A stretch of 41,607 bases of DNA from Candidatus Woesearchaeota archaeon (lineage in GTDB: Archaea; Nanobdellota; Nanobdellia; Pacearchaeales; GW2011-AR1). The notes beneath the pieces are model-generated. The model saw only the letters and a program-made list of their open reading frames with translations, was not told the DNA's origin and ran no database searches. Location: the NCBI GenBank assembly GCA_964421685.1, contig CAYQXU010000001.1:1-41607 (forward strand), read 5' to 3'. This document shows, in pieces, positions 2,654-27,611 of this stretch (its first letter is position 1; every line of letters begins with the position of its first letter). The position numbers and the translations under genes were made by a program.

Positions 2654-3016
2654 TTATTCAACTAAGATTCCATTTACGACGCCATCTTGGCTTGGCCTGT
2701 TAGTTACCTTGACTTTTCCAAGGTCTGTTGAAATTATTGTTCCTTTTGTTATAATATTCTGCCTTGCCAAGAACCTGTTTGAAGGGGTTTCAAGAACGTT
2801 TTTTATTTCAGCTTTTTGCATCTTACTTTTAACCTTTACATTAACTAATTTTGCCTGCAAAAGGAAAATTTTTTTATTTCCTCCTTGGATTCTTAGTGAC
2901 TTTCTTTTTTCTTTAGTTGAAAGCTTCACTATCCTTCTTTGCCCTGGCAGTTCATACTTTTTTTTCTTTCTGCTTTTTATGTATCTTCCGCCAGATATTT
3001 TTTTGCCATGTTTCAT
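2654..3016 (-). CDS. rps8e: 30S ribosomal protein S8e
   Basis: 120 aa. GGRYIKSRKKKKYELPG and RIQGGNKKIFLLQAK match the archaeal S8e pattern. Confidence 0.9.
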   Translation of the reverse strand: MKHGKKISGGRYIKSRKKKKYELPGQRRIVKLSTKEKRKSLRIQGGNKKIFLLQAKLVNVKVKSKMQKAEIKNVLETPSNRFLARQNIITKGTIISTDLGKVKVTNRPSQDGVVNGILVE

Positions 3017-3023
3017 TGTAAAA

Positions 3024-3120
3024 ACCTACGGTTTTTTGCTCGAGCCAACACTTACTTTTGGATTATCTCGTGTAAACTCTCGTCCCTCAAACAACTTCTT
3101 TTCATTGCCTTCGAGAGAAG
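3024..3120 (-). promoter_or_regulatory. Conserved leader element, copy 1 (upstream of rps8e)
   Basis: The 45-nt core GCTCGAGCCAACACTTACTTTTGGATTATCTCGTGTAAACTCTCG at 3038-3082 is identical to 25648-25692 and differs by 1 nt from 27394-27438. It lies 21 nt from the rps8e ATG and downstream (on the minus strand) of an A/T box, TTTAAATA, at about 3147-3154. Confidence 0.55.
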
Positions 3121-3299
3121 TTAGTATAAGTGAAGGGAAAATTTGATTTAAATACCTTTTTGTTGAACCTTTTGAAAATAAACCTTTTAAAAAAAGGTTT
3201 CCAAAACTAAAATTTAAATAAATTTTTTCGAAATGTTTATAAACTGCCCATGCAAGATTAAATAATATTAAGCTGATTATTTCAGCTTTTGAATTAAAA

Positions 3300-3551
3300 A
3301 TGGTTAACGGAATCGAAAGGCCACTGGATTTGTTGAACAATTCTAAGGGAAAGGAAGTTTTAGTGTTCCTTAAAGGCGATAAGCAGTTTGTAGGCACACT
3401 ACTCGCCTTTGACATACACATCAACTTAGTTTTGGACAACATAAAAGAAATGCAGAATGGCGAGATAAAAAGAAACCTTGGATTGACTTTTTTGAGAGGA
3501 GATACAATTATCTTCATCTCACCGGCATCGACTGCCTTAAAAAAAGACTAG
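3300..3551 (+). CDS. Sm-like (LSm/SmAP) RNA-binding protein
   Basis: 83 aa with Sm1/Sm2 motif patterns (KEVLVFLKGDKQFVGTLLAFDIHINLVLDN ... TFLRGDTIIFIS). Confidence 0.9.
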   Translation: MVNGIERPLDLLNNSKGKEVLVFLKGDKQFVGTLLAFDIHINLVLDNIKEMQNGEIKRNLGLTFLRGDTIIFISPASTALKKD

Positions 3552-5310: not shown

Positions 5311-5784
5311 ATGATAGAGCCTAGAGAAGAATTTATGTTTGAAGCAATATTGCAGGCTAATTTAGCGAGAGAAAGAGGAGATTATGCAATTGGCGCAGTT
5401 ATCGTGAATGATTGTAAAATAATTTTTTCTTCAGGCAACAAAAGCAAGACTTATGAGAATCCTACTAAACATGCTGAAATAATTGCTATTTCTGAGGCTT
5501 CTAGAATTTTAGGGAGAAGGCATCTTAATGACGGCATTCTTTATACAACTAACGAGCCTTGTGTGATGTGTACAGGAGCAGCTGTTTGGGCTAAGCTCCG
5601 AGGAATTGTTTATGGCTCTAGGTGGGAAGACATGAGGGATTATGCTCAGAAATATGCAAATGAAAGTTATTTATGGAGGACTATTGATATTCCTTGTAAA
5701 TATGTTATTGAAAAATCTAGCGAACAAATAGAGGTTGTCGGAGATTTTATGAGAGAGGAATGTTTAAAACTATTTCATTGCTAA
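5311..5784 (+). CDS. CMP/dCMP-type zinc deaminase (TadA/guanine-deaminase-like)
   Basis: 157 aa with zinc-binding motifs HAE (KHAEIIAI) and PCxxC (EPCVMCTGA). Confidence 0.8.
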   Translation: MIEPREEFMFEAILQANLARERGDYAIGAVIVNDCKIIFSSGNKSKTYENPTKHAEIIAISEASRILGRRHLNDGILYTTNEPCVMCTGAAVWAKLRGIVYGSRWEDMRDYAQKYANESYLWRTIDIPCKYVIEKSSEQIEVVGDFMREECLKLFHC

Positions 5785-5796
5785 TAGATTTATAAA

Positions 5797-6453
5797 ATGA
5801 ACCTTTTGAAAAATAAAGACAAAGATCTTTTGGATCTTTATCCTTATGACATCTCCTTTAGGAGAAGGTTTCCAAAACGAACGAGGTTCCCAAATATAAA
5901 AAATATGAAAAAAGCGTATTTGATTCATGGATGGGGAGGAAGTTCTTCCAGCGAGCCATGGCTTCAATGGATTAAGAAAGAACTTGAAAAGAAGAAGTTT
6001 GAAGTTATTTCATTTGACATGCCAAACACTGAAAAGCCTAAGATAGAAGAGTGGGTTAAATATTTGGAGGATCGCATTAAAGATGTTGATGAAAAAACTT
6101 ATTTCATCGGTCATAGCATTGGATGCCAGACAATTTTAAGATTTTTAGAGAAAATTCATAGACATAAGAGAATTGGAGGATGTGTTTTTGTTGCAGGATG
6201 GTTTAATGTTATTAATTTAGAGCCTGAAGAATTAGCGATAGCTCATCCTTGGATGAATACTGGAATTGAATTTGAAAGAGTTTTAGACCACTGCAATAAA
6301 TTTTTAGCTATTTTTTCAGATAATGACCCTTATGTTCATTTAGACGAGGCTGAAAAATTTAAGACTAATTTAGGAGCTAAGATAATAATTAAGAAAGGGC
6401 AAGAACACTTTAATTCCACTGAAAAAATTCCTGAGATTTTGGAGTTTTTGTGA
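5797..6453 (+). CDS. Alpha/beta serine hydrolase, RBBP9/YdeN-like
   Basis: [11 protein letters not shown] and the nucleophile elbow GHSIGC, with a size typical of the YdeN/RBBP9 family. The conserved part begins at the internal ATG at 5905, which is the more likely start. Confidence 0.7.
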
Positions 6454-6875
6454 TGAAGATGAAATCCTACACGAAAAAACTAGTTATGCACACTAAAAAG
6501 AAAATTGAATTTGTTAACATAACTAAAGATGTTGAAAAGGCTGTTAATGAGAGCAAAGTTAGAGAAGGACTGGTTTTAATTAATGCAATGCACATAACCG
6601 CAAGTGTTTTTATTAATGACGATGAACAAGGGCTTTTAAGTGATTTTGAAAAATGGCTGGAAAAATTAGCCACTAAAGATATTAATTTGTATAAACATAA
6701 TTTAACAGGAGAAGATAATGCTTATTCTCATTTGTGGAGAACAATTATGGGAAGAGAAGTTGTTATTGCCATAACGCAAGGAAAGTTGGATTTTGGACCT
6801 TGGGAGAGTATATTTTATGGAGAATTTGATGGGCAACGAGATAAGCGTATAATTATTAAGATCATAGGCGATTAA
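6453..6875 (+). CDS. YjbQ/UPF0047 family protein (secondary thiamine-phosphate synthase-like)
   Basis: The pattern [22 protein letters not shown] ... [38 protein letters not shown] is typical of UPF0047. The ATG at 6453 overlaps the upstream TGA (TGATG). The ORF track starts at the GTG at 6450. Confidence 0.8.
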
Positions 6876-6936
6876 CACTACTTCGTCCAAGCTTGGCCAA
6901 AGTAAAGAATTATGATAAAAATAATTGGTGAATAAA

Positions 6937-9806: not shown

Positions 9807-12800
9807 AAGAGCAGGTGATAAAAAATGAGAAGCAATTTGCACAATGGTTTAGAAAGAACTACAAAGAATTAGGTTATTCAAAAATAATAAGAGGGGATAT
9901 TTCAAGGTGCCCTGATTTTATAATGTTAAGAAATGGTAAAGAGGTGAGAGTTGAGTTAGAAACAATATCATCTAATTTTATTGCCCATAAACATTCATTA
10001 GATTCTATTGATGAAATTATTTGTTTAATTAAAGATGTTGATTTGGGAAAGCCTACTAGAGAAATTAAAGAGTTAAAATTTGAGGGAAATAGGAAAGTTA
10101 CACTAAGCCTTGATGATAAAGTTTATTCTGACTTTCAGAGATTTTGCGAGGAAAATGCTATTATGCTTTCTAAGAAAATTGAGCTTTTAATGAGAGATCT
10201 GCTGAATAAAAAAAAGAATTTTCTTCTGATGTTTTTTTTAGGAATCTTTTTTATAAGTTTTGTCAGCTCTTCAACAATACTATTTGATGGTTTTGAATCT
10301 GGAGGATTGGCAAATTGGACCCTTTGGAGCAATGCAGGGGCGAACAGCAATTGGACAGCTTCAAGCACTGACCCAAATACAGGAACTTTTCATGCTAATG
10401 GAAATCCAAGAACAACTAATGATCCAGGGATAATAATGAATCAAAGCATTAATACTTCAGGATATAAAAATATTACATTTAGCTATGCAAGAAAACTTAA
10501 TTTAGGAACATCGCTTAAGACATTCAGAGCTAAATGGTATAATGGGACAATTTGGACAATAGTTGAGAATGCAAATAATACAGTAGATTCTGTTTACGTA
10601 AATAAAAATTTCACTTTATCATCCTCTGCAGACAATAACTCAAATTTTAAAATAAGCTTTGATTGTACAGAAGGAACAACAACTGACTATTGTAGAGTTG
10701 ATGATGTTAACATTTCTGGAAATGTAATAGACACAACGCCTCCACAGATTAGCATAACCTATCCTTTAAACTCTTCTTATAATATTAATGTAACTGCGTT
10801 GAATTATACAGCAAGCGACAATTCTGCTTTAGATAAATGCTGGTACAGCTTGAATAATGGAGTTACTAATACAACAATTACATGTGGAAATAATGTAAGC
10901 GGGTTAAGCAGCAACGAGGGAAGCAATACCTGGAAGGTTTGGGCAAACGATACTGCAGGAAATCTCAACTCTTCCAGCAAAACCTTTTTTGTAGACACCA
11001 TAAGCCCTAATATATCTATAATCTCACCTTTGAATCAAACCTTTACTAATGCAACAATACTTGTTAATCTATCTGCATCAGACTCTAATGGAGTTTCTCA
11101 AATTTGGTTTTATAATGGAACGGCAAATGTGAGTTATTCCTCTCCAGCTTATTACACTTTTCCTCAAGGATCTACCACAATTATTGCTTACGCAAATGAC
11201 ACAATAGGAAATCTCAATTCTTCTAATAAAACCTTTTTTGTAGATAGTGTGATTCCGAGCATTGTTATTTATTCTCCACTAAATACAACTTACAACTCAA
11301 GCAGTGTTTTCTTGAATTATTCTGCAAGCGATTCTAGCGGAATAAGCGCTTGCTGGTACTCCAGAGATTCAAATCCTAATATTTCATTGGTTGGCTGTTC
11401 TACAGCAACTCTAACAGGATTTAGTGATGGTAGCCACAATATAAGAGTTTATGCAAACGATACTGCAGGAAATTTAAATTCATCAACTGCTTATTTTTCA
11501 GCGGATTCAACACCTCCATCGTGGAGCGGCGTTCAAAGCTCTACACCTGGAGCTTACTCGGCTCAAGTTTCTTACTTTAATGTTACATGGAATGATTCTT
11601 CTGGAGTATCAAGTGTTTTATTTGAAAGCAATTTTTCAGGATCAAATCAAAATTATTCTATGAGCTTGATTTCTGGAAATGTTTATGGGTTCAATGCAAC
11701 TTTGCCTGCAGGAACATTTTATTGGAAATCTTACGCCAACGACACTCTTGGCAATTTGAATGTAAGTGCTAGCCAAATTTTCACAATTTCTAAAGCATCA
11801 AATCCAGTAGACTTGTATATCAACGGGAATAAAAACCAAAATACAACAGTTTTTTATGGGAATCAAACTAATGTTACAGGAGCAGCATTTTCTGGAGGAA
11901 TTTCTATTTACAAAAATGGAGTTTTAATTTCAAATCCTGAAATAGCTGTTCTAGCTGCAAACTTGTCTGGATATATTTATAATGCAACTAGTGCAGGAAA
12001 CCAGAATTACACAAGCAACTCAACAATAATTTATTTAATTGTTAACAAATCAACTCCAGGATTAAATATGCTCATTAACGGAAATGCAAGCAGCTCAAGC
12101 TTAGTTTATGGGAATGTTTCTAACTTAACTTCTTACGAATTTAATTCAGGAGATGATGATGTTGTGTACACTTTATATCGAGATGGAATTGCAATAGGTT
12201 TAGGATCTTCTGTTCAAGATGTCGGTGTTTTAGGAGTTCAAAATTATACTTATACTTATAATACCTCTGGCGGGAGCAACTATTCAAGCAATTCTTTAGC
12301 AAGAAATTTAGAAATATCAAAGGCTAGCCCTAATGTAACTCTTTTGCTCGATGGATCTAGCTCTGATTTATCAATATCTATAAATGATGTTTTAAATGTG
12401 AGCGCTTCCATTTACTCTCCGTCTACTGGCTCAATTGATCTTTATGAGGACTCTAGCTTAAATTCTTCTGGAACAATTATTTCAATTCAAAAAAACTATA
12501 CTAGCCTAGGAAATAGAGTTTGGAAGACTGTTTTTTTAGGAAACCAGAATTACAGCGCTCAGAACATTTCATATACTGTAAGTGTTATAGATTCTAACTC
12601 GCCGCATTTTTCTAATATCAAGGTTTCGCCAAGCTCACAATCAACTTACTCGCCAAATAGAACTTACCAATTTAATATAACCTGGACAGATGATATTGCT
12701 ATTGACAATGTGATCTTCAGTTTTAATGGAACTAACTATAGCTTTTCATCAGGTCAAGTTAAAAGAAATGCAGATGAATATTATATGAACATTAGCAATT

Positions 12801-17392: not shown

Positions 17393-18313
17393 TTATATTA
17401 CCGCAACATTCCACGATCCGTATGCGGAAGATGAATATGACTGCTGGCTTAGGCTTGAAGGCAGTCCTGTAAGACAGAAGTATAAATTTTGCTGTCCTGA
17501 TGTAAAGTTTCCGTAGTTTAATGAATTATTCCCTCTTTGAAGCAATGCTGAGGTTATGTTTTTGGAGGTTGCATTAGCCATTGTTGTTCCTGAACAGCCT
17601 TGAGATATATTCTGAACACTGAAGTTTGCAGCATAAATAAATTCAGTGAGAGTTGTTTCTCCTCTTAAATCGTAAGCTGTAACATTAGTGTCGACAACTT
17701 CATCATTTCCTGTGTTATTTATTATTATTGGATCATTGTTTGAGCCTGTATTTGTAGTTGAAGCAGTTATTGTTGTCCATGTTAATGCTGTAGGACTCAT
17801 AACCATTGATGTAAGTGTGTTATATGTGAATGTTGTTGATGAGTTTTCTGCATAGCTTCCGCTATTGTCTTTTATTGTTGCATTAATTGTCCATGCTGCA
17901 GGCTTGTCGAAATATTGCATTGAAATTGTGCATGTAAAATTAATGTTGTTTCCAACACCTATAGATGTATTTATGCAGGAAGTGTTTGATCTCGTTGTTT
18001 CACCTGAAAATTGAAAGTAAGCTTTAGCAGAGCTTAAATTAATGTTTGAACTTCCATCTACATCATTTGCTGTATAGTTGAATGTTATTGCCTTTGTTGA
18101 AGATTCTGTTGGATTTTGCGATGAAATTGCATTAACAATAGTTACTGTTGGGGCTGTGTTTCCAATTGTTATATTTAAAGAAGCTGTACCTGAAGTTGCC
18201 TTACCTGTTATTTTTGGACTTTTGAAAAAATCAAAAATCCCTGCAGATACAAATGTAGTTATAATTATTCCGACTATGACTATCATAAAAAGAACATAAA
18301 CCTCCTTTCTCAT
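17393..18313 (-). CDS. Secreted 306-aa paralog of the membrane-proximal ectodomain of the 1521-aa protein
   Basis: Own signal peptide. aa about 55-306 align with aa about 1080-1330 of the ORF at 18352..22917, including DNA blocks with 100% identity. Ends at ...YGSWNVAVI without an anchor. Confidence 0.7.
   Translation of the reverse strand: MRKEVYVLFMIVIVGIIITTFVSAGIFDFFKSPKITGKATSGTASLNITIGNTAPTVTIVNAISSQNPTESSTKAITFNYTANDVDGSSNINLSSAKAYFQFSGETTRSNTSCINTSIGVGNNINFTCTISMQYFDKPAAWTINATIKDNSGSYAENSSTTFTYNTLTSMVMSPTALTWTTITASTTNTGSNNDPIIINNTGNDEVVDTNVTAYDLRGETTLTEFIYAANFSVQNISQGCSGTTMANATSKNITSALLQRGNNSLNYGNFTSGQQNLYFCLTGLPSSLSQQSYSSSAYGSWNVAVI
17411..18155. repeat. Direct repeat, copy A (partner at 18934-19675)
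   Basis: Mosaic similarity. Exact blocks at 17418-17566 = 18941-19089 (149 bp) and 17790-17944 = 19313-19467 (155 bp) are separated by diverged patches. Confidence 0.9.
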
Positions 18314-18351: not shown

Positions 18352-21300
18352 TCATTTTTTTACTGCTTTTTTGTATATGCTTCCTATATTTCTCTGGTCT
18401 CTTTCAACTAACGACGATATTTCTGAATATTTAAGGCCCTTTTCTTTTAGATGAACAACTATTGATTCTAGTATTGTCAGCTTTCTATTCTTGAATATTT
18501 CTATCGGCAGGGTGTAGCCTTTTTCTTTTATCATTAAAGGATCTTTCTTCTTTTCATAAGCTTTCTTGTAGGCTGTCCATATTGTTCTTTCATCTCTCAA
18601 CAATTGCTTTGAAATTTCCCTATAGTTCATTCCAAGGTTTTCCTTCATGTATTTAACTAAAGATTCTAGCGCTCCTAGTTCTTTTGTGAATATAGACACT
18701 GGGATATTCTTTTGCTTCATTTCTATTATTTCTGCAATCTCTTTTTCACTCAAGCCATATCTTTCTTTCATTTCCTTGATTATTATTTCCAGCAGCTCTT
18801 TTTTATCAAGTGTATATTTTTCTTTTAGCTCGTCCATAATTAACCCTAAAGCCTTGACAAGTCTGTCTTCCTTGATCCCTTTCTTTTTCTTTCTTGATTT
18901 AGGAATTATAAGAGCGAGAAGCACTGTTACACTCCACGACCCGTATGCGGAAGATGAATATGACTGCTGGCTTAGGCTTGAAGGCAGTCCTGTAAGACAG
19001 AAGTATAAATTTTGCTGTCCTGATGTAAAGTTTCCGTAGTTTAATGAATTATTCCCTCTTTGAAGCAATGCTGAGGTTATGTTTTTGGATGTTGCATTAG
19101 CCATTGTTGTTCCAGAACAGCCTTGGGATATATTCTGGATGCTGAAATTTGCAGCATAAATAAATTCTGTTGTAGTTGTTTCCCCCCTTAAATTATAAGC
19201 TGTGACATTTGTATCAAGAACTTCATCATTTCCTGTGTTATTTATCAAGATAGGGTCATTATTGGAGCCTACATTCGTCTGCCATGTAACAATCTGATCC
19301 CATCCTAGCGACGTAGGACTCATAACCATTGATGTAAGTGTGTTATATGTGAATGTTGTTGATGAGTTTTCTGCATAGCTTCCGCTATTGTCTTTTATTG
19401 TTGCATTAATTGTCCATGCTGCAGGCTTGTCGAAATATTGCATTGAAATTGTGCATGTAAAATTAATATCATTGCCGACTGGGACAGAGGTATTTATGCA
19501 GCTTGTGTTCTGTCTTGTTGTTTCACCTGAAAATTGAAAGTAAGCTGCTGCAGTGCTGATATTGATTGTAGAGCCGCCGTTTGCATCTGTTGCTGTGAAG
19601 TTGAATGTTATTGCCTTTGTTGAAGATTCTGTTGGATTTTGCGCAGAGATTGCGTTAACTGCTCCTATTGTTGGAGCTACTTGGCTGATTATGTTGACAA
19701 CATAGGAATTATTTAATCCTAAATTTCCTGCGCTGTCATTAACGTACACATTTATTGTTCTATTTCCATCTGCAAGACTTGTCAAGGGGATTGATGTTGT
19801 GTTACACCAACCATTGGATACAGATAGAGTTGTATTTGTTCCATTTACTTCAATACTACATGAAACAGGTAAGGTTGTCACATCAGTTGCAGAAATGTTT
19901 AGTGTTAGAGTAGCTGTATTTTGTTTTTGAGTTGCGTTAGTATAGGCAGGCAGAGTTATTGTAGGTGCAGTCGTATCTACAATAAATGTCCTGTTTGCTG
20001 ACGTGAATGCAGAATTTCCCACAGTATCATTTCCCCAAGCAGCCCAAACGTATTTTCCATCGGAAATGCTTGCTACTGTGACGTTCCACCATGAATTATT
20101 TAATGGAGTTGCGTTTGTCTGATTTGCTATCCAACTCCCACTCCAATTTCCATAGAGTGCTAAATAGTTAACTGCCACATTATCTGCTATTTTTAGATCA
20201 AAAGTAACTGATTTTGAACTTGAATTGTAATTGTCTACGGGATTTGTTCCAAAAGTTAGATTTGGGGCTACTGCGTCAACTATTATTGTCCTATTGCTTG
20301 ACCAACCCTCGCCCCCAGAAGAATCATTACACCTTATTCCCCAAATAAAACTTGAGTTAGATAAACCACTTGTTGATAGATTATACCATGTAGCGTTAGT
20401 TGGAGAAGATTGGGTTGTTTTTGCTGCCCATGTTCCTGTGTCGTTTGTCCATATTTCCAAAGCTGATAATGTGGAATCTATGTCGTCAGTACACTTAGCA
20501 TCAAATACAGCTGTTGTACTAGCAGTAGTGTTTGCATTAGCAGGATTTGTTCCAAGAGCAGCTATTGGATTTAAATCTACTTTAGTTACATTGAGCTGTG
20601 AATTATTTCCTGAAGAATTAAATAAAACATATCCTCGATAAGTACCATTATACCATAACTCAGTTCCAATGAAATGTCCAGCGGGAAGCAGGTATCCTGA
20701 AGAATTTGAACAACCTGTGGAATTGCTTCTGTATGTTGGAGCAATTTGATTACAATTAAAACTAAGTGGACTCGAGCAAATTTGTGCTTTTGTTCCACAA
20801 GCTGAGTCAGTACAGTCAAGTACACGATATAGATTTATGTAACGGTCTTTTGTTAAAGTACTGTTTGATGCATTGCACCAGATACCTATTGGGAAAGCTC
20901 CAGAGAGATTTGTGTTTACTGCGAAAGAACTGCTAATAAAATACACAGATTGATTTCCGGTGGCAACCCAATCAGCAACCGCCGATCCTGTTGAAGTACC
21001 TAAAGACTGATTAGACACATTTCCTGAAGAAGATATTCCTCTGAAATAATAAGTTGTTAAAACGTTTGTTGGATCGACAATGTGATCAATTTCAACACTT
21101 CCTCCGACAACTTTTAAATCAAATGTCTCTTGGCTGTTTTGCAAGCTTGTTAAAAGAACTTTGTTGTATTGATTATCTTGGATGTTTGTGAATTCTGCTA
21201 TTTTTGTACTCGAGTCTTTTTCATAAACTTCTATTTTTGGCGAGCCACTTATTTTTCTTGGATAAATGGTTATATCATTTGAAGATGTAAGATTTTTTTC

Positions 21301-22917
21301 GAAAGTTACTCTTACGTAATCTTGGTTTGGAATAGTTTCGCTCCAAATTCCATCAAGTTTTTTCACTTCTTCGTAAATATCTGAGAGGAAGTTTTTATCT
21401 TTATCTAAGTGTTCGGCCTTTGTAATAACTATAATTTCAAATGTCTGGTTGCTTAAGCTAGGGACGAGCCATTCTATATAGTCATAAATTCCGTTGCTGT
21501 CTTTATCTTGCACAGAGCTTGGAGATAGATAAGTATTTTGCTCTATCCAATGAATTTTTATTCTTGAGGGATCTTTTAATTTAAGAGATTCTGGCAGATT
21601 TGTGAATGCAAGAACATTTGTGTAGTGGATTCCATCTGGAGAAGAAATCTTTATTCTTTTCCCTCTTGAAATTGTTTCTTCTAAAACTGATGGGGCAGGG
21701 GTTTCGTATTCTAATTCATATATGGAAGAAGAATCCCCTATAGAAATTTCAAGAACAGATGGTCCGGATTGGGAAGGACTCATTTCTTTCTCCGAGACAT
21801 CTGCTTTGATTTCCTTCAATTTTATTTTTTGAGCATCTTTAGGAATTGATATTTTTGTTTTGCCTGTTTTTTTTGGCGTAATTGTTTGCTTCCACTTTAC
21901 ACTTTCTCCTATTTTTCCAGGAAGCTGTATTGTTGTTATATTAAAATCTTGAGTCATGTTTTCTGCTGTTTCATTAACGTTTGTTATGTTGGTTTCTGTT
22001 ATGTTTCTTGGAGGAGTTATTGTTATATTTGTAATGTTTTCTTCTGGTGCTATTTCAGGCACTTTTGGCTTTTCTATGATAATTCCATAGTTTATCCTAT
22101 GAATTTTTAGTACTGTTCCAGCCCCTCCACCATCACCCCGACCACCCACCCCTTCATTCGAAATTTCAATCTTTATATTGTAAGATGACTTATTTAACAA
22201 AAGAGATTCTATATTGCATGTTTCTTCGCAGATATTGGAGAAATTAATGATTTTTATTTGCGAAGGAATTTCCTCACTTGCATTTGTTGCATTTGAAGAA
22301 GTGCCGAAAAACGATTCTTGAATTGCTCCTTGCTTTGAGTTTGGAAAAATTGAACTATCTAAAATTAAGATTTTATCAAGGTAAACTTTAACGATTCCTT
22401 CCCCTTTAATTAGACCATCAATATTGACATAACTTAAATTTCCTTGATTTTCAAGTTTCCATTCATAAGTTGTTGAGTCATTAGTTTCTATGTTTATTTC
22501 TTGAAAAAATTCTTGCTTCTCAATGCTAATTTCAGGAGCTCTCCCTTCTGAAACTAAAAATCCAGTGAGTTTTATGTTTGCTAGTTGAGAGAAAGCGAAT
22601 GTGAGTGCGATTAAAATTATTGAGAAAATTAATATGTTTATTGTGTGATTTTTAATTATGTGTTTTTTATGTTTTTTTATTTCAATTTCACACTCTTTTA
22701 TGTGATTATCATAGTGATTAATGTATTCATGAATATTTTTTCCATCGTGCTTTTTATGATGTGTTTCAATAAAATTAGCATATGTAATTTGTTTTTTATG
22801 ATAAGCATGATGTAGGTTTTCTAAGTAATTCTGGAGATGTTTTTTTCTAATATTTGCTTCTTTAATTTGCTCTTTGAGCTGGGCTATAGAAGCTTTTGCT
22901 AAGCGAGTCCTTTTCAT
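18352..22917 (-). CDS. Giant (1521 aa) two-TM surface protein with His-rich N-terminal and tandem-HTH C-terminal cytoplasmic domains
   Basis: aa 1-92: His/Lys-rich. TM at aa 93-112. About 1200 aa of sequon-rich ectodomain with Ig-like modules. A short hydrophobic segment (VTVLLALIIP) plus KSRKKKKG. A 182-aa tail with two Tfx/LuxR/sigma-r4-like HTH repeats. Confidence 0.8.
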   Translation of the reverse strand: MKRTRLAKASIAQLKEQIKEANIRKKHLQNYLENLHHAYHKKQITYANFIETHHKKHDGKNIHEYINHYDNHIKECEIEIKKHKKHIIKNHTINILIFSIILIALTFAFSQLANIKLTGFLVSEGRAPEISIEKQEFFQEINIETNDSTTYEWKLENQGNLSYVNIDGLIKGEGIVKVYLDKILILDSSIFPNSKQGAIQESFFGTSSNATNASEEIPSQIKIINFSNICEETCNIESLLLNKSSYNIKIEISNEGVGGRGDGGGAGTVLKIHRINYGIIIEKPKVPEIAPEENITNITITPPRNITETNITNVNETAENMTQDFNITTIQLPGKIGESVKWKQTITPKKTGKTKISIPKDAQKIKLKEIKADVSEKEMSPSQSGPSVLEISIGDSSSIYELEYETPAPSVLEETISRGKRIKISSPDGIHYTNVLAFTNLPESLKLKDPSRIKIHWIEQNTYLSPSSVQDKDSNGIYDYIEWLVPSLSNQTFEIIVITKAEHLDKDKNFLSDIYEEVKKLDGIWSETIPNQDYVRVTFEKNLTSSNDITIYPRKISGSPKIEVYEKDSSTKIAEFTNIQDNQYNKVLLTSLQNSQETFDLKVVGGSVEIDHIVDPTNVLTTYYFRGISSSGNVSNQSLGTSTGSAVADWVATGNQSVYFISSSFAVNTNLSGAFPIGIWCNASNSTLTKDRYINLYRVLDCTDSACGTKAQICSSPLSFNCNQIAPTYRSNSTGCSNSSGYLLPAGHFIGTELWYNGTYRGYVLFNSSGNNSQLNVTKVDLNPIAALGTNPANANTTASTTAVFDAKCTDDIDSTLSALEIWTNDTGTWAAKTTQSSPTNATWYNLSTSGLSNSSFIWGIRCNDSSGGEGWSSNRTIIVDAVAPNLTFGTNPVDNYNSSSKSVTFDLKIADNVAVNYLALYGNWSGSWIANQTNATPLNNSWWNVTVASISDGKYVWAAWGNDTVGNSAFTSANRTFIVDTTAPTITLPAYTNATQKQNTATLTLNISATDVTTLPVSCSIEVNGTNTTLSVSNGWCNTTSIPLTSLADGNRTINVYVNDSAGNLGLNNSYVVNIISQVAPTIGAVNAISAQNPTESSTKAITFNFTATDANGGSTINISTAAAYFQFSGETTRQNTSCINTSVPVGNDINFTCTISMQYFDKPAAWTINATIKDNSGSYAENSSTTFTYNTLTSMVMSPTSLGWDQIVTWQTNVGSNNDPILINNTGNDEVLDTNVTAYNLRGETTTTEFIYAANFSIQNISQGCSGTTMANATSKNITSALLQRGNNSLNYGNFTSGQQNLYFCLTGLPSSLSQQSYSSSAYGSWSVTVLLALIIPKSRKKKKGIKEDRLVKALGLIMDELKEKYTLDKKELLEIIIKEMKERYGLSEKEIAEIIEMKQKNIPVSIFTKELGALESLVKYMKENLGMNYREISKQLLRDERTIWTAYKKAYEKKKDPLMIKEKGYTLPIEIFKNRKLTILESIVVHLKEKGLKYSEISSLVERDQRNIGSIYKKAVKK
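18934..19675. repeat. Direct repeat, copy B (partner at 17411-18155)
   Basis: See copy A. Same orientation, offset about 1.5 kb. Confidence 0.9.
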
Positions 22918-24972: not shown

Positions 24973-25102
24973 TTTTATTTTTATTTATTAAGGCTTGACA
25001 ATATTTTGACTATTTCTTTTTATTATTCTTATTATAATAATTCAAATGCAGATTTTTTAAATTGCTTCGTTTAAAATAAATTTTCTTAAGCTCATTTATT
25101 TT

Positions 25103-25197
25103 GTGAATGGCTTTGCCAGAAGAACAGCTTCTTTAAATCCATTTGCTTCGTAAATGGCTTTGACAGAAAAAGAATTTTCTTTAAATCCATACAAGTA
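25103..25197. repeat. Two tandem ~46-nt degenerate copies of the tRNA 3' end
   Basis: GTGAATGGCTTTGCCAGAAGAACAGCTTCTTTAAATCCAT and GTAAATGGCTTTGACAGAAAAAGAATTTTCTTTAAATCCAT directly abut GTATGGCTTTGAGGAGAATTTAACTCC, which is the tRNA 3' end on the plus strand. Confidence 0.6.
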
Positions 25198-25367
25198 TGG
25201 CTTTGAGGAGAATTTAACTCCCGACCTCGGCCTCTCTCAGCAAGATGTTTTTTAGTGTGTTTATTATTAAACTCCATACACTGAAATTTTCTTTTAGAAA
25301 ATTTCGTGAATGTGCTTGATTTCATCAAGCCCATGAGAGCCGCGCTCTGACACTGAGCTACAAAGCC
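25198..25367 (-). tRNA. tRNA-Met/Ile2 (anticodon CAT) with a 98-nt intron at position 37/38
   Basis: Manual fold: acceptor GGCTTTG/CAAAGCC plus A73, D arm GCTC-AGTGTCA-GAGC, anticodon stem CGGCT/GGCCG, loop CTCATG|intron|A, variable loop AGGTC, T arm GGGAG-TTAAATT-CTCCT. BHB: central helix CUCA/UGAG flanked by 3-nt bulges UG|G and AG|A. Confidence 0.85.
25234..25331 (-). other. tRNA intron (98 nt)
   Basis: Delimited by the BHB geometry. Contains perfect hairpins GCTTGAT-GAA-ATCAAGC and GAAATTTTCT-AAA-AGAAAATTTC. UGAUGA lies near the 5' end and CUGA near the 3' end. Confidence 0.75.
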
Positions 25368-25409: not shown

Positions 25410-25598
25410 TTAGCTAGACGCCCTTTCCCTTTTTTCAAGCGTAACTAAGTAGCCTGCAATTTGATTTCTCATTTTTTTGCTGGGCATAGTATTTCCAAGC
25501 ACTTTTTTGTTTTCGCTGAAGCCTGAGCTAAATTTAATGCCCCTTCTTCTAAGCTCTTCGGCTGTTCTTTTGATTGTTTTTGACTTTATTTTTCCCAT
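25410..25598 (-). CDS. rps17e: 30S ribosomal protein S17e
   Basis: Start taken at MGKIKSKTIKR, preceded by GGAGG. ENKKVLGNTMPSKKMRNQIAGYLVTL matches the S17e pattern. The longer track ORF (to 25661) runs into the leader element. Confidence 0.85.
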   Translation of the reverse strand: MGKIKSKTIKRTAEELRRRGIKFSSGFSENKKVLGNTMPSKKMRNQIAGYLVTLEKRERASS

Positions 25599-25647
25599 TG
25601 AAAACCTCCTGCGGGTTTTCGATCCAGCTTCCTTCGAGTTTTTTTCT

Positions 25648-25712
25648 GCTCGAGCCAACACTTACTTTTGGATTATCTCGTGTAAACTCTCGTTGCCTCC
25701 GAAGAAACTCGG
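25648..25712 (-). promoter_or_regulatory. Conserved leader element, copy 2 (upstream of rps17e)
   Basis: The core at 25648-25692 is identical to 3038-3082 and lies 49 nt from the rps17e ATG. It is followed by TTGCCTCCGAAGAAACTCGG, which relates to the TTGCCTCCGAGAGAAG tail of copy 3. Confidence 0.55.
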
Positions 25713-26801: not shown

Positions 26802-27320
26802 TTATGGCCTAATCCATGCTACTTCATAGTAAGAAACATCTCCCTCTTCATCTACAATTGCAAGAAGGAGGTTCTTTTTTGTGCTGTGGGCAACTCTGTT
26901 TTTTGCTGAGAATTCGTGCCATGAGAATTTCTTTGATTCGTGCTCGCAGAAAACAATCCATTTTGCATGCTCATTTCCTGGTTTTGAACCTTTATTATAA
27001 ACTCTAAAATCAGCCCCGAATTTTAATGCTGTTTTAACTATATACCCTTTTTCTCTTAAATTTTTGAAAACTAAATATTTTATTTGAATTCTCTGGTCAA
27101 GTTTTTCAAGTTTTTTCAAGATTTCCTTTTTTGAAATTTTTTCACTTTTAGAAACTAGATCCATTTTGTCTTTTTCTACTAAGTAAAGTGTTTCTGTTAA
27201 GGTATATTGGATTTTTTCCCCAAGTGACTCCCCAAAAGAGCTTTTTTCATGCAATGAGAATGCCTCGTTAGAGTTGCTTGAAACAATATGCCCTGAAAGG
27301 TTTGATTGTATTTTTTCCAT
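26802..27320 (-). CDS. endA: tRNA-splicing endonuclease (homotetramer-type size)
   Basis: 172 aa. YLVFKNLREKGYIVKTALKFGADFRVYNKG...EHAKWIV...RVAHSTKKNLLLAIVDEEGDVSYYEVAWIRP closely follows the EndA catalytic domain pattern. Confidence 0.88.
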   Translation of the reverse strand: MEKIQSNLSGHIVSSNSNEAFSLHEKSSFGESLGEKIQYTLTETLYLVEKDKMDLVSKSEKISKKEILKKLEKLDQRIQIKYLVFKNLREKGYIVKTALKFGADFRVYNKGSKPGNEHAKWIVFCEHESKKFSWHEFSAKNRVAHSTKKNLLLAIVDEEGDVSYYEVAWIRP

Positions 27321-27393
27321 TTTTAAAACAACCTAACGGTTTTTTTAGATTTTCCCTTAAGTTAGACTCAAGGCTGATAACCTGCGGTTTTTT

Positions 27394-27520
27394 GCTCGAG
27401 CCAACACTTACTTTTGGATTATCTCGTGTAAGCTCTCGTCCCTCAAACAACTTCTTTTTTTCTCAAGCCCACACTCAATTTGGACTATGTCGTGTAAACT
27501 CTCGTTGCCTCCGAGAGAAG
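27394..27520 (-). promoter_or_regulatory. Conserved leader element, copies 3a and 3b (tandem, upstream of endA)
   Basis: The core at 27394-27438 has 1 mismatch to the others. A diverged second core (TCTCAAGCCCACACTCAATTTGGACTATGTCGTGTAAACTCTCG) lies at 27461-27504, followed by TTGCCTCCGAGAGAAG. The element is 73 nt from the endA ATG. Confidence 0.55.
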
Positions 27521-27611
27521 TTTATTTCCCGTGTTATAAACAATTTATTGGAATATTTAAATTTGTGGTTTCATTGGAAATATTTATTAACATGCCTTTG
27601 CTTTTTACACT

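Follow-up and report, generated by a model that had tools for sequence, protein, structure and literature searches.

The 45-nt string that recurs before the genes for S8e, S17e and EndA is not a regulon operator; it belongs to a repeat family present in Pacearchaeota/Woesearchaeota-type DPANN genomes. With a probability of roughly 0.58, this is a proliferating and partly domesticated family of modular hairpin repeats, which provides otherwise leaderless genes with portable leaders bearing a Shine-Dalgarno (SD) motif, the 44-nt core hairpin being a nested add-on. According to this explanation, copies of a cassette would have entered transcribed DNA, nearly always as sense copies, and most often they would have landed in the very interval that separates the transcription start of an otherwise leaderless gene from its start codon. 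There it would supply a structured 5′ end together with an SD-like AGGU or GGAGGU at the proper distance from the ATG, and the core would be gained and lost separately from the cassette, at two sites. The genomes of DPANN archaea are tiny and their mRNAs mostly leaderless, and to our knowledge almost nothing is known of how expression is tuned in these archaea. A repeat that installs ready-made, structured leaders with a ribosome-binding site would offer a direct and datable example of how a small repeat switches the translation-initiation mode, and essential genes (those for ribosomal proteins, SRP54, EndA and RuBisCO) are among the genes concerned.

In the window, that is, the whole stretch of 41,607 nucleotides that was analysed, the string is found exactly at 3038–3082 and 25648–25692 and with one mismatch at 27394–27438, just as an earlier, sequence-only reading of this DNA had reported; no such match is expected by chance, and 0 of 100 shuffles gave one. 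The diverged tandem copy described in the same reading was recovered at 27462–27504 by the repeat finder and by the covariance model. The window thus has four cores, every one on the minus strand, and the common orientation and the distances of 21, 49 and 73 nt to the ATGs of S8e, S17e and EndA, respectively, had been given correctly. Copies 1 and 3b (Table 1) share 98% identity over 80 nt (3023–3102 versus 27379–27458), so the repeated unit exceeds 45 nt. The GC content of the element is 0.42–0.54, against 0.29–0.36 for the window. Two derived, helix-weakening substitutions (AAGUGUUGG; NGAGUGUGGG to UAAGUGUUGG) are common to the three main window cores, and the core comparison shows them in no genome other than that of the window. 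Such shared, derived and helix-weakening changes argue for copying from one variant and against independent selection, and they point to the three copies being the likely descendants of one variant that was copied recently.

Table 1. Positions of the cassette components, cores and genes at the three leaders of the window
Feature	Position	Strand	Remarks
TATA-like box TATTTAAA, S8e promoter	3147–3154	−	cassette begins 25 nt downstream; same box in L024 and L022
Complete S8e leader cassette	3017–3122	−	P1a, B motif, nested core, A-run/U-run hairpin with SD-like motif
P1a hairpin, S8e leader	3093–3122	−	AACUUCU/AGAAGUU, loop CUCGAAGGCAAUGAAA; equals empty core site 1
B motif GUUUGAGGGA, S8e leader	3083–3092	−	alternative 13-bp helix with A-side UCUCUCGA (minimum-free-energy fold)
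Core hairpin, copy 1	3039–3082	−	site 2, after GAGGGA; covariance-model score 78.2 bits
P3 hairpin, S8e leader	3020–3037	−	AAAAAACC-GUA-GGUUUUU; SD-like UAGGU at 3024–3028, 7 nt before the ATG at 3016
Ribosomal protein S8e gene	2654–3016	−	Pfam PF01201, E = 2e-27
P1a hairpin, S17e leader	25635–25711	−	CGAGUUU/AAACUCG around loop CUUCGGAGGCAA and core copy 2
Core hairpin, copy 2	25649–25692	−	site 1, within P1a; covariance-model score 80.4 bits
P3-type hairpin, S17e leader	25600–25620	−	GAAAACC-CGCAGGA-GGUUUUC; SD AGGAGGU at 25604–25610; ATG at 25598
Ribosomal protein S17e gene	25410–25598	−	Pfam PF00833, E = 1e-10
P1a hairpin, EndA leader	27449–27522	−	AACUUCU/AGAAGUU around loop CUCGGAGGCAA and core copy 3a
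Older core, copy 3a	27462–27504	−	inside P1a of the EndA leader; covariance-model score 68.5 bits
Core hairpin, copy 3b	27395–27438	−	site 2, after B motif 27439–27448; covariance-model score 77.6 bits
First, partial P3, EndA leader	27379–27394	−	
Second P3-type hairpin, EndA leader	27325–27346	−	SD-like UAGGU at 27331–27335; ATG at 27320
tRNA-splicing endonuclease EndA gene	26802–27320	−	Pfam PF01974 and PF02778

On the transcribed strand, the core folds into one continuous hairpin of 16 positions (CGAGAGYUURCACGAG/NGAGUGYGGGCUCGAG, 44 nt) and not into the two isolated 4-bp helices first described. It contains three consecutive U·G pairs and, close to either end, a tandem mismatch of the G·A/A·G type, and these U·G and G·A pairs can be formed on the sense strand only. 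Across the 11 Watson–Crick or wobble pairs of 12 copies, 97.7% of the cells are paired, and one pair is compensatory (A-U to G-C, in the relative L003), which supports the earlier placement of a hairpin on the transcribed-sense strand. As for the switch that had been proposed between an upstream CUCUCG and the CGAGAG of the core, the pairing is confined to the window lineage, and other genomes read ACUUUCAUCGG instead.

The core is surrounded by a cassette, which consists of the stem P1a, the purine-rich B motif and an A-run/U-run hairpin named P3. The loop of P1a reads (C)AUCGGAGGCAA, the B motif reads YGCUUGAGGGA with the purine-rich GAGGGA within it, and P3 in the leader copies carries AGGU or GGAGGU 7–10 nt before the ATG. 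The P1a stems vary yet stay complementary (GACUUUC/GAAAGUC, AACUUCU/AGAAGUU, CGAGUUU/AAACUCG, CGAUUUU/AAAAUCG, CAACUUU/AAAGUUG and CGGUUUC/GAAAUCG), with compensatory changes at 7 of 7 pairs among 13 distinct variants. In this alignment, which is an excerpt with 3′ arms picked by hand, 96.7% of the cells are paired, a value attained by 0 of 500 shuffles, in which 62.7% are paired. The window lineage also has an alternative helix between the A and B sides (UCUCUCGA/UUGAGGGA plus GCAAU/GUUGU), for which compensatory changes are seen in the S8e orthologues L019 and L015.

The core occupies two sites that share their context (GAGGCAA^U.AAA and GAGGGA^UCAAAA). Both are found empty, as GGCAA|U(U/G)A... 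and GAGGGA|UCAAAA, and filled, as GGCAA[core]CA.AAA and GAGGGA[core]CAAAAA. The loop of the core is itself replaced or interrupted in L019, L002 and L003b. A further module of about 50 nt with GCAACUUCAC lies inside the core loop of L002 (5767–5859, minus strand), and the GCAACUUCAC module is met again in L004 (6612–6680), where it separates the A motif from the B motif; this suggests that more nested repeat modules exist than P1a, B, P3 and the core.

Beyond the window, an exact-pattern scan of one genome per species gave six further cores, three apiece from a Woesearchaeota and a Pacearchaeota MAG, and each core lies 65–125 nt upstream of an ATG on the same strand. The genes that follow them encode an RNase T-like exonuclease, a presenilin-type signal-peptide peptidase, SRP54, a T2SS-F-like protein, the RuBisCO large subunit and L44e. 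Since these genes are unrelated, the element is not tied to RNA or ribosome genes, a link which the sequence-only reading had drawn from the three genes of the window. Among five matches in a metagenome scan, one is real (L010) and the other four are false positives in bacterial rpoB coding sequence; a two-arm pattern scan of viral contigs gave 0 matches, and the core covariance model, run over about 238 kb of related loci, detected no additional diverged cores. A permissive search for the cassette by stem plus motif was mostly noise (400 matches versus about 210 in shuffles) and added known copies only. The sample comprises about 20 copies, which lie on fragments of a few MAGs, and when independent loci are counted, sense outnumbers antisense by about 12 to 1. 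Copies scattered inside genes, in both orientations and without relation to gene starts had been named earlier as the mark of a MITE. Copies do lie inside genes for MGMT and a kinase, and one is antisense, but the tie to gene starts is strong.

Comparison of orthologues shows the cassette present in some leaders and absent from others. The homologues of S8e that were retrieved with their contigs keep the LSm-S8e-TFIIB synteny. At 89% S8e identity (L019), the leader contains P1a, core, B and P3, with the core at the other site and with a different, extended loop; at 82% (L015), it contains P1a, B and P3 without the core; and at 75–76% (L022 and L024), there is no cassette, and the ATG stands 21 nt after the same TATA box, a distance from which we read the S8e mRNAs of L022 and L024 as leaderless. 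EndA and S17e of L022 show the same cassette-free arrangement. The expectation of conservation in orthologous leaders has accordingly failed, and the element is conserved neither upstream of orthologous genes nor upstream of the genes of one pathway, as would be usual for a ribosomal-protein leader or a riboswitch. Leaders with and without the cassette in orthologous positions indicate an insertion that is specific to certain lineages and falls between the predicted transcription start and the ATG.

In many genes of the window, a TATA-like box stands about 27–30 nt ahead of the ATG, and SD-like motifs in the window are essentially confined to the three cassette genes and two others. The cores lie downstream of TATA-like boxes and within the expected transcribed leader, in agreement with the earlier description; transcription at the cassette leaders would begin at positions predicted from these boxes. 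The AGGU motif presumably acts as a ribosome-binding site, and the cassette hairpins at the 5′ end would stabilise the mRNA. A practical effect of the cassette is that it causes gene-calling artefacts, namely N-terminally extended S8e proteins and spurious ORFs. In the S8e homologues P0004 and P0005, gene callers extend the protein upstream through the cassette (N-termini VWARAEKKLLGGSKTVGFKM... and MRTSLEDNEKKLIEGSKTVGFKM...), and in the window the 163-aa ORF at 3026–3517 on the minus strand, which covers the S8e leader, is such a spurious product. Separately, the divergent intergenic region between LSm and S8e holds a hairpin at 3262–3280 (AAGCUGA-UUAUU-UCAGCUU), which covaries among relatives (AGCCGA/UCGGCU in L015, AGCUGA/UCAGCU in L024 and CCGA/UCGG in L022).

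In addition to leaders, the cassette is found in frame within coding sequences. L010 has a cassette with core inside an MGMT-family gene, and L003 has a decayed cassette with core inside a Bud32-like kinase gene (5700–6614). MGMT proteins of DPANN archaea fall into two classes, one of 97–100 aa with ...NKNPYAPKVACHRV and the other of 121–141 aa with an insertion at the same point. In the DNA of five MGMT genes, this insertion is composed of a P1a hairpin with the AUCGGAGGCAA loop (with a core nested in it or without one), an invariant GAUUAGAGGAGAUUCAAAAAG and then P3, in which one compensatory change is seen (GG/CC to GA/UC). The MGMT genes translate the A motif in two frames, as ATFVGG and as ISSEAI, so it is the nucleic acid and not the peptide that is conserved. 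Among codons that specify the same amino acid, identity at the third position is 0.93 for the insert block compared with 0.34 and 0.50 for the flanking codons. The inserts are kept open in MGMT (the five genes plus L030) and in the kinase of L003. All insert-bearing MGMT ORFs are open, and the loops of genic cores are changed in such a way that the in-frame stop disappears, which implies that the insert is translated. AlphaFold2 gives the MGMT insert a pLDDT below 50, with moderately confident flanks. The variants of P1a group like the MGMT proteins, which suggests vertical inheritance, and certain genomes retain the MGMT insert but have no further copy in 49 kb, a low copy density which argues against homogenisation by gene conversion. 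A peptide-profile search of the protein database for in-frame copies gave no matches. Two readings of the A-run in MGMT were dropped, frameshifting for want of an in-frame slippery heptamer and translational bypass for want of a stop after the take-off codon.

The constraint just described could also belong to a cis-regulatory RNA module, through which a protein, or the anti-Shine-Dalgarno end of 16S rRNA, would co-regulate many mRNAs. The parts recognised would be the conserved GGAGGCAA loop, the GAGGGA/GAGGAG motif and the tandem-G·A hairpin, translation or stability would be controlled, and copies would have spread by conferring regulation. Such a trans-acting factor fits the nucleotide-level conservation between genomes, which in MGMT goes far beyond what the codons require, as well as the sense-strand specificity of the structure, the sense bias, and P1a variants that track the MGMT phylogeny as if retained vertically for a long time under selection. 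However, the target genes have no function in common, close orthologues are without the module or have it in another arrangement, the core loop is replaceable or interruptible, and the window copies share mutations that weaken the helix. Nor do the Rfam 15 covariance models match the element, either at the gathering threshold or at E ≤ 10, so that it is absent from Rfam, where the sequence-only reading had advised looking, and nothing on it was found in the PMC and bioRxiv papers searched. A regulon of this type is therefore considered rather unlikely.

All the same, the sense orientation, the strand-specific wobbles and the saturated synonymous sites around the 93%-conserved MGMT insert speak for selection on an RNA function, and these signs of RNA-level selection point to something that a purely selfish model leaves unexplained. 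The cassette could then be a functional RNA module that colonises transcripts, either a sense RNA-level mobile element fixed in DNA or a 'zip-code' for a DPANN factor or anti-SD. If true, this would explain both the nucleotide-level selection within MGMT and the passage from leaderless to SD-dependent initiation; we regard it as quite unlikely. The in-frame copies themselves may be an archaeal counterpart of the 'selfish DNA in genes' of Rickettsia, or else an unrecognised RNA signal in coding regions.

Returning to the portable-leader reading, the manner of copying can be approached through the few insertions that have flanking duplications. In L006 (6794–6875), a coreless cassette lies antisense in the 5′ end of the Gins51 gene, between two copies of the first 32 nt of that gene. 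The MGMT insertion of L030 is flanked by a duplication of 27 nt, and L031 keeps a duplication of the 27-nt type with only a CACUUCGC remnant of the element. The differences between the duplicate copies in L006 and L030 are nearly all synonymous (7 of 9), which would fit donor DNA from a related lineage. No flanking duplication was seen at the leader copies. Because terminal inverted repeats, short target-site duplications and a transposase were all absent from about 330 kb of loci, it is the distribution alone from which mobility is deduced; candidate routes of copying are a REP/IS200-like single-strand-DNA hairpin mechanism and recombination with homeologous DNA. Two side observations concern these loci. 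In L006, a 44-codon upstream ORF (6778–6909, minus strand) starts from the duplicated Gins51 start and continues across the antisense cassette as far as an ATATGA, where its stop overlaps the true Gins51 ATG; this is a termination-reinitiation arrangement that keeps the leaderless start usable. In L031, the MGMT gene (10001–10366) has a duplicated TAMNKNPY-like segment (TAMGKDGY) beside the CACUUCGC remnant and looks like a deletion footprint of the cassette.

A processing site had also been suggested. In this rival, the element would be an intron or a site cut by EndA, and a bulge-helix-bulge (BHB) motif would serve to excise it from leaders as well as from the mRNAs of MGMT and the kinase. 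The endA gene itself is preceded by a copy, the genic copies are sense-oriented, and a relaxed BHB in L010 (AAGAA/UUUUU, UCCA/UGGA) would splice in frame. Yet the BHB scan, which recovers the window's own tRNA intron as a control, finds no conserved BHB in the leaders. The candidate motifs of the five MGMT genes differ in register; L028 and L029 have them out of frame or not at all, and the in-frame candidates leave 3, 4 or 5 residues from the NP/Asn hinge to the catalytic Cys, whereas uninterrupted proteins have 6, so that the junctions are inconsistent with the NKNPYAPKVACHRV homologues. With MGMT ORFs that stay open and core loops that avoid stops, EndA splicing was rejected as very improbable. 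Archaeal mRNA introns with a BHB are known from cbf5 (PMC2738675). Introns of the cbf5 type resemble the present family in being short sense insertions in archaeal coding sequences of a host that encodes EndA, but the family differs from them in having no conserved BHB, inconsistent predicted products and maintained reading frames.

Equally faint is the chance of gene-specific autoregulation, in which S8e, S17e, EndA or L7Ae would bind the hairpin. The element does precede two ribosomal-protein genes and endA, and its tandem G·A pairs are reminiscent of K-turn-type protein sites; but the same element stands upstream of the genes for RuBisCO, SRP54, the exonuclease, the peptidase and the T2SS-F-like protein, and the S8e, S17e and EndA leaders of relatives are without it. 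This distribution contradicts two of the roles named in the sequence-only reading, the autoregulatory site and the embedded small RNA. A K-turn or L7Ae site was rejected on structural grounds, since the tandem G·A pairs are flanked by Watson–Crick pairs on both sides and have no adjoining 3-nt bulge; the loop that neighbours them is variable (12 × 5 nt), and L010 lacks AA. An embedded small RNA is just as improbable, the element having neither a promoter nor a terminator of its own.

Palindromic elements kept within bacterial genes are among the closest known systems. The RPE features used here for comparison are those generally known from the RPE literature. Like the RPEs of Rickettsia and the QMITEs of Coxiella (PMC5896051), the present family consists of short, hairpin-forming dispersed repeats that lie in intergenic DNA and in frame within genes, are kept as translated insertions, and are present or absent among orthologues. 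In this family too, in-frame insertions in genes remain open, and the hairpin-forming sequence occurs in non-coding DNA as well. Unlike RPEs, it occurs in archaea, the sense orientation holds for about 12 of 13 independent loci, the copies are concentrated between transcription start and ATG and bring an SD-like motif, the nested core is gained separately, and the MGMT copy is under strong nucleotide-level constraint.

The family has strand-specific imperfect hairpins without terminal inverted repeats or a short target duplication in common with REP/BIME-RAYT and with PATEs derived from IS200/IS605, and its core, like these elements, adjoins a fixed short context (GAGGNA^U.AAAA). It differs from REP elements and PATEs in lying 5′ and not 3′ of genes, in a P1a that covaries and so has no fixed recognition sequence, and in two insertions with target duplications of 27–32 nt. 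A strand-specific hairpin beside a fixed short target, a feature of the REP/IS200 type, is seen in the core only, and no Y1 (HUH) transposase, RAYT or TnpB is found in the locus gene lists (precomputed Pfam, about 330 kb of loci). The Correia elements of Neisseria, the pneumococcal BOX and the enterobacterial ERIC are likewise modular mosaic hairpins that are co-transcribed with their neighbours and may alter expression. The present family departs from them in having neither terminal inverted repeats nor a TA duplication, in its bias of orientation and position, in the ribosome-binding site it provides and in its in-frame genic copies. With classical MITEs it shares several near-identical non-coding copies per genome that are polymorphic among relatives. 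Terminal inverted repeats are lacking, however, for one end of the cassette (ACUUUC...) is no inverted copy of the other (...GGUUUUU), and the only inverted repeat of the cassette, P1a, covaries between copies; in place of a target-site duplication of 2–10 bp, two copies have duplications of 27 and 32 nt. In a MITE census, a Woesearchaea genome was among the archaeal genomes of highest MITE density (PMC11602168).

Several other features of the window were observed. Directly downstream of S17e lies a tRNA with anticodon CAU (25198–25367, minus strand), which was found by Rfam and missed by ARAGORN. It has an intron of 101 nt at the canonical position with a good BHB motif, and since UGAUGA at its start is C-box-like and CUGA at its end D-box-like, this intron may be the source of a box C/D small RNA. 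Just 3′ of this intron-bearing tRNA, two tandem units of 47 nt with 70% identity (25086–25179) overlap a small ORF of 80 aa (25092–25334, minus strand). Finally, two 300-nt direct repeats (93% and 85% identity; 1523 nt apart) at 17406–18076 and 18929–19599 are situated in the neighbouring minus-strand ORFs 17393–18313 and 18352–22917, and they look like a duplicated domain common to the two adjacent genes.
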